Positions 59,455-63,139 of a stretch of DNA of 64,000 nt are shown here, piece after piece. Made by a program: the position numbers and the translations under genes. This stretch comes from Escherichia coli (GTDB lineage Bacteria; Pseudomonadota; Gammaproteobacteria; Enterobacterales; Enterobacteriaceae), in the NCBI RefSeq assembly GCF_003334785.1, contig NZ_QOWV01000001.1. One strand, given 5' to 3'. Numbering within the stretch: the stretch's first letter is position 1; every line of letters begins with the position of its first letter. Below the pieces are notes generated by a model, which saw only the letters and a program-made list of their open reading frames with translations, was not told where the DNA came from and did no database searches.

Positions 59455-61803
59455 ATGCTGAGTTTATACGAAAAGATAAAGATAAGGCTGATAATTTTAT
59501 TTTTATTGGCAGCACTGTCATTTATTGGTCTTTTTTTCATCATTAACTATCAACTGGTATCGGAGCGCGCGGTAAAACGTGCCGATAGCCGCTTTGAACT
59601 TATTCAGAAAAACGTTGGCTATTTCTTTAAAGATATTGAACGTTCGGCCCTGACATTAAAGGACTCACTGTATTTATTAAAAAATACAGAGGAGATTCAA
59701 CGCGCCGTGATTCTTAAAATGGAAATGATGCCATTTTTAGACTCGGTGGGACTGGTACTTGATGATAATAAATATTATCTTTTTTCGCGGAGGGCGAATG
59801 ATAAAATCGTTGTTTATCATCAGGAACAAGTAAATGGACCGCTTGTCGACGAGTCAGGGCGGGTTATTTTTGCCGATTTTAACCCATCGAAACGACCGTG
59901 GTCGGTGGCTTCAGATGACTCTAACAACAGCTGGAATCCGGCATACAATTGCTTTGATCGTCCGGGTAAAAAATGTATCTCTTTTACGCTACACATCAAC
60001 GGCAAAGATCACGATTTGTTAGCGGTGGATAAAATTCATGTCGATTTAAACTGGCGATATCTGAACGAGTATCTTGATCAAATCAGCGCTAATGATGAAG
60101 TTCTATTTTTGAAACAAGGCCATGAGATCATTGCCAAGAATCAACTCGCTCGTGAAAAACTGATTATTTATAATAGCGAAGGTAATTATAATATTATTGA
60201 TTCTGTCGATACTGAATATATCGAAAAAACATCAGCGGTGCCAAACAACGCATTATTCGAAATCTATTTTTATTATCCTGGCGGTAATTTATTGAACGCA
60301 TCAGATAAACTTTTTTATCTGCCGTTTGCGTTCATTATTATCGTATTGCTGGTGGTTTATTTAATGACCACTCGTGTGTTCCGTCGGCAATTTTCTGAAA
60401 TGACAGAGCTGGTTAATACGCTGGCGTTTTTGCCTGACTCAACGGATCAAATCGAGGCTCTGAAAATTCGTGAAGGCGATGCGAAAGAGATTATCAGCAT
60501 CAAAAATTCGATCGCGGAAATGAAAGATGCCGAAATTGAACGGTCAAATAAATTGCTCTCACTGATCTCTTACGATCAGGAAAGTGGTTTTATTAAAAAT
60601 ATGGCGATTATTGAGTCTAACAATAATCAGTATCTGGCTGTGGGGATCATCAAACTGTGTGGTCTGGAAGCCGTGGAAGCGGTGTTTGGTGTTGATGAGC
60701 GCAATAAAATCGTCAGGAAATTGTGTCAGCGAATTGCCGAGAAATATGCGCAATGCTGCGATATCGTGACATTCAATGCCGATCTCTATTTACTTCTGTG
60801 TCGGGAAAATGTACAGACATTTACCCGTAAAATAGCGATGGTAAACGATTTTGACAGCAGCTTTGGCTACCGCAATCTGCGCATCCATAAGTCTGCCATT
60901 TGTGAACCTTTGCAGGGGGAAAACGCCTGGAGTTACGCAGAAAAACTGAAACTGGCGATTTCCAGTATCCGTGACCATATGTTCTCAGAGTTTATTTTCT
61001 GTGATGACGCGAAACTCAACGAAATAGAAGAGAATATCTGGATTGCGCGTAATATTCGCCATGCAATGGAAATTGGCGAACTATTCCTCGTCTATCAACC
61101 GATCGTTGATATTAACACCCGCGCCATTCTGGGCGCGGAGGCGTTGTGCCGTTGGGTGTCTGCGGAGCGGGGGATCATTTCACCGCTGAAGTTCATTACC
61201 ATTGCTGAAGATATCGGGTTTATCAATGAGCTGGGTTATCAGATTATTAAAACGGCAATGGGTGAATTCAGACATTTTAGTCAGCGTGCGTCGCTGAAGG
61301 ATGATTTCTTACTGCATATTAATGTTTCGCCCTGGCAGTTAAACGAACCACACTTTCATGAGCGTTTTACCACCATCATGAAAGAAAATGGCCTGAAGGC
61401 GAACAGCCTCTGTGTTGAGATCACTGAAACCGTGATCGAGCGAATTAATGAACATTTTTATCTCAATATTGAACAACTGCGTAAACAAGGGGTACGGATA
61501 TCGATTGATGACTTTGGCACCGGTTTGTCAAACCTGAAACGTTTTTATGAAATTAATCCAGACAGCATAAAGGTGGACTCGCAATTCACCGGCGATATTT
61601 TCGGTACTGCGGGAAAAATTGTGCGCATTATTTTCGACCTGGCACGCTATAACCGGATCCCGGTGATTGCGGAAGGCGTAGAGAGCGAAGACGTTGCGCG
61701 CGAATTAATCAAATTAGGATGTGTTCAGGCTCAGGGGTATCTGTACCAGAAACCCATGCCATTCTCCGCCTGGGATAAAAGTGGAAAATTAGTAAAAGAG
61801 TAG
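59455..61803 (+). CDS. pdeI: PdeI (YliE), membrane-anchored c-di-GMP phosphodiesterase with EAL domain (782 aa)
   Basis: ORF 59377..61803; start at ATG 59455 ([10 protein letters not shown]); two TM segments flanking a periplasmic domain; EAL motif (LGAEALCRW) in the C-terminal domain. Confidence 0.9.
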
Positions 61804-61810
61804 TTTACGT

Positions 61811-63139
61811 ATGTCCAGAATCAATAAGTTCGTACTTACAGTCAGTCTGCTGATTTTTATCATGATTTCAGCAGTTGCCTGCGGGATCTACACTCAAATG
61901 GTAAAGGAACGGGTGTATAGCCTGAAACAGTCCGTTATTGATACTGCTTTTGCGGTGGCAAATATTGCTGAATATCGGCGTAGCGTGGCAATTGATCTTA
62001 TCAACACGCTAAATCCCACGGAGGAACAGCTGTTGGTTGGTTTGCGCACAGCTTACGCCGACTCGGTTTCCCCCTCTTATTTGTACGATGTCGGTCCTTA
62101 TCTGATTTCCAGTGACGAATGTATTCAGGTAAAGGAGTTCGAGAAAAATTATTGTGCAGATATTATGCAGGTTGTGAAGTATCGACATGTCAAAAATACA
62201 GGGTTTATCTCTTTTGACGGTAAAACCTTCGTCTATTACCTCTATCCGGTAACTCACAATCGTAGTCTGATATTTTTGCTTGGTCTGGAGCGTTTTTCTT
62301 TACTGTCAAAATCGCTGGCGATGGACAGCGAGAACCTGATGTTCTCTCTATTTAAGAACGGTAAACCGGTGACCGGTGATGAATATAATGCTAAAAACGC
62401 CATCTTCACCGTTTCGGAAGCGATGGAGCACTTCGCCTATTTGCCGACCGGATTGTATGTATTTGCGTATAAAAAAGATGTTTATTTGCGGGTTTGTACA
62501 TTGATTATTTTCTTTGCCGCATTGGTGGCAGTGATATCGGGTGCCAGTTGCCTCTATCTGGTACGCAGAGTGATTAATCGTGGTATTGTGGAGAAAGAAG
62601 CCATCATTAATAACCATTTTGAACGCGTACTGGATGGCGGGCTTTTCTTTTCGGCTGCCGATGTCAAAAAACTCTACAGTATGTATAACTCGGCGTTCCT
62701 GGACGACCTGACCAAAGCAATGGGCAGAAAATCCTTTGACGAAGATTTAAAAGCGCTGCCGGAAAAAGGCGGTTATTTGTGCCTGTTTGACGTCGATAAA
62801 TTCAAAAACATTAACGACACCTTCGGTCATTTGCTGGGCGATGAAGTGTTGATGAAAGTGGTGAAAATCCTTAAATCACAGATCCCGGTAGATAAAGGTA
62901 AAGTCTACCGCTTCGGCGGTGACGAATTTGCGGTGATTTATACGGGTGGAACGCTGGAAGAGTTGCTATCGATTCTAAAAGAAATCGTTCATTTCCAGGT
63001 GGGAAGCATTAATTTAAGTACCAGTATCGGTGTAGCACATTCAAATGAATGTCCTACCGTCGAACGCTTGAAAATGCTGGCGGATGAGCGGCTGTATAAG
63101 AGTAAGAAAAACGGCAGGGCACAGATTAGCTGGCAGTAA
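61811..63139 (+). CDS. dgcI: DgcI (YliF), membrane-anchored diguanylate cyclase with GGDEF domain (442 aa)
   Basis: ORF 61811..63139; intact GGDEF motif (RFGGDEFAV); N-terminal TM/periplasmic region. Confidence 0.9.

Follow-up and report, generated by a model that had tools for sequence, protein, structure and literature searches.

Adjacent pdeI and dgcI genes of Escherichia coli as an AT-rich cyclic di-GMP module probably inserted between gsiD and rimO in the ancestor of the genus

The pdeI-dgcI locus

The 64-kb stretch of Escherichia coli DNA analysed here (contig NZ_QOWV01000001.1, referred to as the window) includes pdeI (yliE) and dgcI (yliF), adjacent genes for membrane proteins with an EAL and a GGDEF domain, respectively, which belong to the cyclic di-guanosine monophosphate (c-di-GMP) network. 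The pair had been singled out as AT-rich in an earlier reading of the window (the original prediction), and the coordinates given there are exact. The features of the locus are as follows.

59278-59454, + strand: gsiD-pdeI intergenic region, 37.3% GC, with a promoter-like site at 59341-59368
59455-61803, + strand: pdeI (yliE) coding sequence, 782 amino acids (aa) from the annotated ATG (open reading frame [ORF], RefSeq annotation, Pfam CHASE9 and EAL)
61811-63139, + strand: dgcI (yliF) coding sequence, 442 aa (ORF, RefSeq annotation), starting 7 nt past the pdeI stop codon
63150-63179, no strand: GC-rich hairpin separating the stop codons of dgcI and rimO, which are convergent, a putative bidirectional terminator

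In the RefSeq annotation, the genes are ordered iaaA-gsiABCD, pdeI, dgcI, followed by the convergent rimO and then bssR and yliI. A longer pdeI ORF could begin from a TTG at 59377, and the annotated ATG is common to the orthologues in E. albertii and E. fergusonii. Both genes are identical to those for PdeI (YliE) and DgcI (YliF) of E. coli K-12, which are catalogued under the systematic GGDEF/EAL nomenclature, with the same Pfam assignments (CHASE9 and EAL, GAPES2 and GGDEF) and nothing that differs, and close relatives share 100% DNA identity across the stretch. As judged by a search with positions 59300-63200, pdeI and dgcI are core genes of E. coli, with matches in all 5426 complete genomes and at least 80% of the query covered at 95-100% identity in 5381 of them. 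The pair is already named and annotated, and its architecture and its link to plasmids and bcs genes are already in the literature. It belongs to the c-di-GMP network of E. coli with textbook annotation, and finding it is therefore no new biology.

Less than 80% of the region is covered in 45 of the 5426 genomes, HCP30S3_I2 retaining just the final 182 nt beside rimO. In some E. coli strains, the insertion sequence (IS) IS1A interrupts pdeI or dgcI, or IS600 interrupts dgcI.

The gsiD-rimO junction

The gsiD gene with 10 kb of flanking sequence was taken from 80 species, and rimO, bssR, yliI, PdeI and DgcI were located in each. Among the 57 Enterobacterales loci with both gsiD and rimO, the gap between these genes is 43-261 nt in 35, in which gsiD abuts the convergent rimO, 300-1000 nt in 8 and more than 1 kb in 14. 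Of these 57 loci, only that of E. albertii has pdeI-dgcI between gsiD and rimO; in E. fergusonii, the pair is found at the same site. No match to the PdeI or DgcI sensor domains was detected in any of the 79 non-Escherichia loci, 56 of which contain gsiD as well as rimO and lack the pair at the junction.

In species lacking the pair, gsiD and rimO are separated by a short spacer that consists of a GC-rich hairpin. Likewise, the hairpin at 63150-63179 in the window, with a folding energy of -20.2 kcal/mol on the + strand and -23.1 kcal/mol on the - strand, is likely a bidirectional terminator. Given that spacers lacking the pair are GC-rich hairpins and that E. coli keeps one by rimO, the insertion would lie between the gsiD stop codon and the rimO-side hairpin.

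The junction is also variable in other Enterobacteriaceae, as seen from the 14 of 57 loci with more than 1 kb. The 13 of these that are not from Escherichia include no PdeI or DgcI match, and the inserts sampled (L045 10909-15706; L039 9140-14780; L047 10909-13971; L010 10909-15412), some of which are below the GC content of their host, hold unrelated genes. These include genes for a LacI-type regulator, an alpha-glucosidase and a GPH symporter, for VC2662-family proteins and a PezT-like toxin, and for an acetyltransferase. Tandem ORFs of similar size at the junction in L045 were considered as a divergent version of the pair and rejected, as they encode the alpha-glucosidase and the sugar symporter. 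In the draft genome of the E. albertii type strain, the first ~26 codons of pdeI (L003 9131-9210) are out of frame relative to an intact E. albertii protein (P0002), and an extra 237-aa ORF (L003 12802-13515) that matches the PRK09687 'putative lyase' lies between dgcI and rimO.

Relatives on plasmids and islands

In searches covering 5.8 billion proteins and 1.84 billion cluster representatives, all relatives found belong to Escherichia or to enterobacterial plasmids and islands. Word-indexed searches of the 5.8 billion proteins revealed no relatives of the N-terminal sensor parts of PdeI and DgcI outside Escherichia, and an exhaustive comparison of a profile of PdeI residues 1-530 with the 1.84 billion representatives gave 55 matches, mostly fragments, the few distant ones of full length leading to mobile DNA. 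In plasmid records, a PdeI-like gene was found in 76 and a DgcI-like gene in 106, all of them from Escherichia except one from Salmonella.

Mobile copies of the pair are carried by the IncFIB plasmid pMADE-3, where they are directly upstream of bcsA-bcsB-bcsC, by IncHI1B plasmids, plasmid pPSS-13_1, a Salmonella IncFII plasmid and a metagenomic plasmid, and by two contigs with IS elements and bcsA-bcsB. A further copy (L083 1-10069) ends a tRNA-Phe island that includes genes for a tyrosine integrase, a TraI_2 relaxase and a UvrD-type helicase, with tRNA-Phe and an ornithine-decarboxylase-family gene as neighbours. In all of these copies, a GAPES2-GGDEF gene follows the EAL gene in the same orientation, separated from it by -11 to +62 nt, and this ordered pair is kept in at least five deep lineages that share only 30-40% identity with one another and with the chromosomal copy. 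PdeI and DgcI vary in parallel in their identities, which are 37/40, 34/39, 36/39 and 32/32% (PdeI/DgcI) relative to E. coli and, within clades, 90/94 and 88/81%, with a further value of 88/93%. The mobile copies have a GC content of 30-35%, and 26-34% at third codon positions (GC3) where measured, inside backbones of 46-52% GC. The association of YliE/YliF homologues with horizontally transferred bcs clusters has been described (preprint 10.1101/2025.05.09.653004).

Mobile copies are often decayed (L088 10914-12187; L089 9019-11812; L094 8001-10304). On two IncHI1B plasmids, the dgcI-like gene carries a frameshift, on further plasmids the pdeI-like gene has been truncated or broken into three ORFs, and IS1 lies beside several of the copies. 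Copies at least 99% identical to chromosomal pdeI and dgcI also occur in PLSDB 'plasmid' records of 0.7 to 4.9 Mb; these records resemble chromosomes or chromosome fragments and hence cannot be counted as plasmid-borne pdeI or dgcI.

A horizontal origin of the chromosomal pair, proposed in the original prediction from the compositional shift, is supported by its absence from the junction outside Escherichia and by relatives found solely on mobile elements, which are stronger evidence than composition. A different history, to which we give a small share of belief, is that the module arose inside Escherichia, for example by duplication of GGDEF and EAL genes already resident there, and was later copied to plasmids with the chromosome as the source. 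Every detectable homologue is indeed in Escherichia or on an enterobacterial plasmid, and mobilisation-driven diversification has been raised as a hypothesis (preprint 10.1101/2025.05.09.653004). However, the mere 30-40% identity of at least five lineages is a deep divergence for one genus, the chromosomal genes are 9-11 GC points below their neighbours, and no resident E. coli protein is detectably related to the sensor domains.

For E. coli versus E. albertii, the ratio of non-synonymous to synonymous substitution rates (dN/dS) ranges from 0.04 to 0.08 over all domains of the two genes, among them the sensor and the degenerate GGDEF-like regions described below, and is 0.02 in gsiD. Relative to E. 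fergusonii, dN is 0.21 for pdeI and 0.14 for dgcI, with values of 0.05-0.08 in the gsi genes and 0.009 in rimO. Thus, pdeI and dgcI evolve faster than their neighbours, yet under purifying selection. The dN/dS values against E. fergusonii were dropped as synonymous sites were saturated (dS 1.5-3 or undefined), and E. albertii was used instead.

Base composition and codon usage

The compositional reference was the 36 other genes mapped within the window. The GC content of pdeI and dgcI is 41.6% and 43.5%, respectively, as compared with 52.8 +/- 3.1% in these genes (z = -3.65 and -3.03), so the pair is AT-richer than the flanking genes, as first noticed. The corresponding GC3 values are 45.1% and 49.7% against 58.1 +/- 4.1% (z = -3.2 and -2.1). 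The lowest GC content of any 1-kb stretch of the window, 37.4%, is reached in the one starting at 59401, and the 3.9-kb pdeI-dgcI stretch accounts for 47 of the 151 windows of 100 nt in which AT reaches 65% or more. The part of pdeI that encodes the periplasmic region is the most AT-rich (37.6% GC, 37.9% GC3).

The GC shift of the pair exceeds what codon choice accounts for because of amino acid content: FYMINK residues make up 33-35% of PdeI and DgcI and 24% of neighbour proteins, while GARP residues make up 19% as compared with about 27-30%. An index of codon adaptation, calculated against the synonymous usage of the neighbours, is at the low end of normal (z = -0.7 for pdeI and -1.1 for dgcI). 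GC3 is below that predicted from amino acid content by 0.10 in pdeI (z = -2.6) and by 0.06 in dgcI (z = -1.6). Of the two properties by which the original prediction proposed to judge the foreign character of the pair, GC content is thus outside the normal spread, in its favour, and codon adaptation is inside, against it.

That the AT-richness is not foreign, and reflects only the amino acid make-up of membrane sensors and weak selection on poorly expressed genes, would suit the FYMINK and GARP contents, the normal codon index and the lack of mobility genes or repeats flanking the pair, but is very improbable given that GC3 is also low, in pdeI beyond the amino acid prediction, that none of the non-Escherichia loci examined has the pair at this junction, and that relatives of the pair occur only on plasmids and islands, with a GC content of 30-35%. 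The pair would therefore be AT-rich because it is an old foreign insertion.

Membrane topology and periplasmic domains

Each protein has two strong hydrophobic segments and between them a periplasmic region, in agreement with the N-terminal transmembrane and periplasmic parts originally predicted, and the domain searches suggested at that time recovered a periplasmic sensor domain in both. The features of PdeI are the following.

59488-59544, + strand: transmembrane (TM) segment 1, aa 12-30 (Kyte-Doolittle 19-residue peak 3.1)
59545-60309, + strand: periplasmic region, aa 31-285 (255 residues), comprising CHASE9 and a distal RPW...W...C...C part
59557-59904, + strand: CHASE9 (PF17153), aa 35-150 (Pfam E 2.3e-62, model positions 1-116 of 116)
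60310-60366, + strand: TM segment 2, aa 286-304 (hydropathy peak 2.79)
60367-60570, + strand: cytoplasmic linker, aa 305-372, between TM segment 2 and the GGDEF-like domain
60571-61044, + strand: predicted degenerate GGDEF-like domain, aa 373-530 (predicted fold), with NADLY at aa 441-445 (nt 60775-60789)
60688-60690, + strand: G412, within the predicted GGDEF-like domain
61048-61755, + strand: EAL domain, aa 532-767 (Pfam EAL E 2e-69, model positions 2-236 of 236)
61138-61146, + strand: EAL motif (GAEALCRW), residues 562-564 (translation checked)

Those of DgcI are as follows.

61832-61888, + strand: TM segment 1, aa 8-26 (hydropathy)
61886-62497, + strand: periplasmic GAPES2 (PF17156), aa 26-229 (Pfam E 2.3e-143, model positions 1-204 of 204)
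62480-62536, + strand: TM segment 2, aa 224-242 (hydropathy)
62693-63121, + strand: GGDEF domain, aa 295-437 (Pfam GGDEF E 1.6e-24)
62915-62929, + strand: GGDEF motif, residues 369-373, within RFGGDEFAV

The CHASE9 and GAPES2 regions have no detectable kinship in an HHalign comparison (probability 0.09%), and a common origin of the two periplasmic domains was rejected on this basis. As both families seem almost confined to these proteins and few relatives, their names are uninformative on ligands.

Residues 135-236 of PdeI weakly match a protein (P0096; E 6e-4) with a dCache_1 domain of its own (Pfam E 3.9e-20). The periplasmic region of PdeI has been labelled xCache, and its linker HAMP (preprint 10.1101/2025.05.09.653004). 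The single weak sequence match is the one link to the former label obtained here, and the latter was not confirmed by Pfam, which gave no HAMP match to the linker even at E <= 10. The GAPES2 domain of DgcI is predicted to adopt a tandem-PDC (dCache-like) fold. Its sequence identity to the dCache/tandem-PDC sensors KinD, AHK4, Tlp3 and PctA is 7-12% only and, unlike these, it is assigned by Pfam to GAPES2 rather than dCache.

W160, C166 and C174 are invariant in 8 PdeI homologues, as are C104 and C115 (window 62120-62155) in the DgcI homologues. In PdeI, C166 and C174 (window 59950-59976) constitute an invariant periplasmic cysteine pair. The retention of one such pair per periplasmic domain in homologues 30-40% identical suggests a structural or redox-sensitive disulfide.

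Catalytic domains of DgcI and PdeI

The GGDEF motif of DgcI reported in the original prediction, RFGGDEFAV, is present and was found in its expected domain context, the domain being related to that of DosC (4zve; phmmer E 8.5e-19). D327, D329, K332, N335, D336, H340, D344 and R367, as well as the GGDEF residues, are invariant in 6 DgcI homologues (32-40% identical), and as judged by these residues the active site is fully intact. The RxxD inhibition site five residues before GGDEF, which is common in the family but not defining, is absent from DgcI, which has VDKG there, and from all homologues.

The EAL motif of PdeI (GAEALCRW) was also correctly recognised. The domain matches 5yrp (phmmer E 1e-44), TBD1265 (2r6o; E 3.9e-37) and RocR (E 1.5e-28), and E562, R566, N623, E655, E658, D685, D686, K706, E740, E743 and Q760, which include the ExLxR motif E562-A-L-C-R566, are invariant among 8 homologues (30-37% identical). 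The EAL domain of PdeI is thus, by its residues, complete with an intact catalytic site. In a published motif table, the EAL and GGDEF active-site residues of yliE and yliF are all consensus (PMC3484386).

The 227 residues between TM segment 2 and the EAL domain of PdeI include no GG[DE]EF motif, as had been noted, and have no Pfam match. A degenerate GGDEF-like domain suspected there is borne out by the predicted fold, while no sequence method detects it. For E. coli PdeI residues 373-530, Pfam gave no GGDEF hit even at E <= 10, and for 8 PdeI homologues it gave nothing significant at E <= 0.001, with one unrelated Rho_RNA_bind match (E 0.08). Searches of the PDB with phmmer and a family profile (hmmsearch) for residues 358-531 revealed no GGDEF domain, only chance-level unrelated matches, and HHalign of the domain against the DgcI GGDEF profile was non-significant (probability 0.65%). 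An AlphaFold2 model of residues 358-531 (pLDDT 79.7, pTM 0.77) was compared with the PDB using Foldseek, which gave 61 matches at E <= 1e-3, and the top 50 (E 1.5e-5 to 7e-4, TM-score 0.5-0.69) are all GGDEF domains, with LapD (6pwj, E 1.5e-5), SadC and DosP as the best.

In the Foldseek register, which is also that of the weak HHalign alignment, the GGDEF position in PdeI is occupied by NADLY. The residues here vary among homologues (SSDLY, NKNKY, SPYKY and SDKIF/SDKRF), there is no Asp in the PdeI segment aligned to the metal-binding FDVD motif, and G412 corresponds to the conserved Gly of the 'GH' turn. The predicted fold hence points to a catalytically dead GGDEF domain in PdeI 373-530, and by analogy with other GGDEF-EAL proteins it likely regulates the EAL domain.

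PdeI shares its overall layout with LapD-type inner-membrane receptors, which are composed of a periplasmic domain, HAMP, a degenerate GGDEF domain and EAL, and the LapD S-helix-GGDEF-EAL structure (6pwj) is the top Foldseek match to the middle domain of PdeI. The EAL domain of LapD lacks catalytic activity and serves as a c-di-GMP receptor for signalling from the inside to the outside. Given that every EAL catalytic residue is kept in PdeI, this protein, unlike LapD, would be expected to be an enzyme that signals from the outside to the inside.

The other adjacent, co-oriented cyclase/phosphodiesterase pair of E. coli is dosC-dosP (dgcO-pdeO). Like PdeI, DosP has a degenerate GGDEF domain before the EAL domain, and it ranks with the best structural hits for the middle domain of PdeI (9bkv, TMq 0.69). 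DosC and DosP are haem/oxygen sensors of the cytoplasm, whereas PdeI and DgcI are, from their sequences, membrane proteins with periplasmic sensors. The cyclase gene is first in dosC-dosP and the phosphodiesterase gene is first in pdeI-dgcI. DosC homologues likewise accompany plasmid bcs clusters (preprint 10.1101/2025.05.09.653004).

Expression

A promoter-like site (TTGTAA-16 nt-TAGAAT; match to the consensus) is located upstream of pdeI at 59341-59368. It lies within the ATTTTGTAGAATC block, which is kept in E. fergusonii and E. albertii, while the rest of the spacer diverges. Promoter-like sites occur in the region at chance level, and 59341-59368 is a putative promoter. Matches to sigma-54 -24/-12 elements at 59397-59412 (43 nt upstream of the pdeI ATG) and 61515-61530 (~280 nt upstream of dgcI) have no statistical weight because the motif is about as frequent in the window as chance predicts (45 matches, with 44 expected), and sigma-54 promoters were rejected as candidates. 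A genomic SELEX peak for RpoN binding lies between yliE and yliF (PMC8743547).

DgcI protein is undetectable in laboratory culture and toxic when expressed (PMC5635695). Both genes are induced at 37°C relative to 23°C in CFT073 (PMC12890032), and yliE and yliF are raised by overexpression of BolA (PMC5605933). The AT-richness of the pair suggests that it may be silenced by H-NS, as put forward in the original prediction, and low or temperature-dependent expression is a further indirect hint; no H-NS binding data for pdeI-dgcI were found in the literature.

Proposed history and function

The reading that we consider probable is that pdeI-dgcI, a core-genome operon of E. coli, is a 3.9-kb two-gene c-di-GMP module that was inserted in the Escherichia ancestor and has partly drifted to host composition. 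The module, then very AT-rich, would have entered the chromosome once, between gsiD and the rimO terminator hairpin, in the ancestor of the genus and since moved part-way towards the composition of the host. The locus would thus record the history of one cyclase/phosphodiesterase pair, with a single old insertion, partial drift and purifying selection, while AT-richer sisters are still moving on plasmids. The genes would be co-transcribed from the putative promoter upstream of pdeI and weakly expressed in laboratory culture, and both products would be inner-membrane proteins with two TM segments, each with its own, unrelated periplasmic sensor. DgcI would sense a signal via its tandem-PDC (GAPES2) domain and make c-di-GMP without a product-inhibition site. 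PdeI would sense a different signal via its CHASE9/Cache-like domain, and this signal may pass through the helical linker to the catalytically dead GGDEF-fold domain, which would gate the complete EAL phosphodiesterase. In this way, the pair would set the local c-di-GMP level from two periplasmic inputs.

An opposing make/break switch, as suggested in the original prediction, is plausible, and the conserved, tightly spaced arrangement of the genes, together with intact catalytic sites and a different sensor in each protein, fits an opposing two-input module. Overexpression of pdeI gives resistance to phage N4, like that of six other phosphodiesterase genes (PMC7553319), and an adherence phenotype of a yliF deletion in CFT073 is complemented by the cyclase WspR (PMC3484386). 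Given that mobile pairs are often directly upstream of plasmid bcsA-bcsB, the ancestral output was probably the c-di-GMP-activated cellulose synthase.

Several findings weigh against this reading. As regards the insertion, the synonymous codon usage of pdeI and dgcI is inside the range of the neighbours (z = -0.7 to -1.4), no meaningful direct or inverted repeats flank the insertion, where only short matches at chance level were found, and no integrase, IS or other mobility gene is present at the reference chromosomal locus. Word-indexed, exhaustive profile and plasmid searches revealed no relatives outside Escherichia other than on one Salmonella plasmid, and hence no donor, so that transfer may have run from a donor to the chromosome or from the chromosome to plasmids. 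As regards the degenerate GGDEF domain of PdeI, sequence methods give it no support, and only one of five AlphaFold models, predicted from 8 sequences, is confident. As regards function, PdeI overexpression raises c-di-GMP ~11-fold, as determined by high-performance liquid chromatography-tandem mass spectrometry, and the substitution G412S abolishes this rise (PMC11651652, eLife). The rise conflicts with a simple phosphodiesterase role of PdeI, which is called a synthetase in the same report (PMC11651652). However, as the GGDEF-fold domain lacks any catalytic residue, the rise caused by PdeI is likely indirect, an effect exerted possibly through DgcI being the obvious alternative.

A bolder variant is that PdeI and DgcI form an obligate two-protein sensor complex, inherited as a unit from an unsampled low-GC source, which was spread with c-di-GMP-dependent cellulose synthases on plasmids and domesticated once in the Escherichia ancestor, and in which the dead GGDEF domain of PdeI docks onto DgcI and controls it and also gates the EAL domain of PdeI. 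We hold this as a tentative proposal, with odds well below those of the module described above. If such a docking complex exists, overproduced PdeI could raise c-di-GMP through DgcI, and the contradictory published phenotypes would be reconciled.

Somewhat less credible still is that pdeI and dgcI are mere neighbours, their enzymes acting independently on targets of their own in response to separate signals and forming no joint switch. Their periplasmic domains are unrelated, a published two-hybrid survey is uninformative for the toxic DgcI (PMC5635695), and the RpoN peak between the two genes may reflect a promoter specific to dgcI (PMC8743547). Against this, the EAL-then-GGDEF order with its narrow range of gaps is kept in every lineage found, and the two proteins co-vary in identity across the lineages.

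The residue analysis bears on a live disagreement over whether PdeI makes c-di-GMP. If PdeI were itself a diguanylate cyclase via its divergent GGDEF domain, the pair would consist of two cyclases. The overexpression data, and a positive correlation between the level of PdeI fused to blue fluorescent protein and a c-di-GMP sensor (PMC11651652), speak for this, but the idea is very improbable: the residues at the GGDEF position are not conserved among homologues, no Asp aligns to FDVD, no sequence method recognises a GGDEF domain, and the EAL site is complete and invariant. Moreover, pdeI overexpression phenocopies that of other phosphodiesterases in phage N4 resistance (PMC7553319). G412S has in addition been cited as lowering c-di-GMP in a pdeH mutant (PMC11651652). 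This effect fits activation of the EAL domain equally well. The G412S result reportedly comes from Reinders et al. 2016.

Other AT-rich parts of the window

The window includes a second low-GC patch at 6360-7982, where 1-kb windows are down to 40.9% GC. It corresponds to the tandem genes ybhL and ybhM, which encode membrane proteins of the Bax inhibitor-1/YccA family. Further clusters of 100-nt windows with at least 65% AT are located at 24000-25000, 28000-29000 and 35000-37000, near ybiJ/ybiI, mcbA and the dps-rhtA-ompX intergenic regions.

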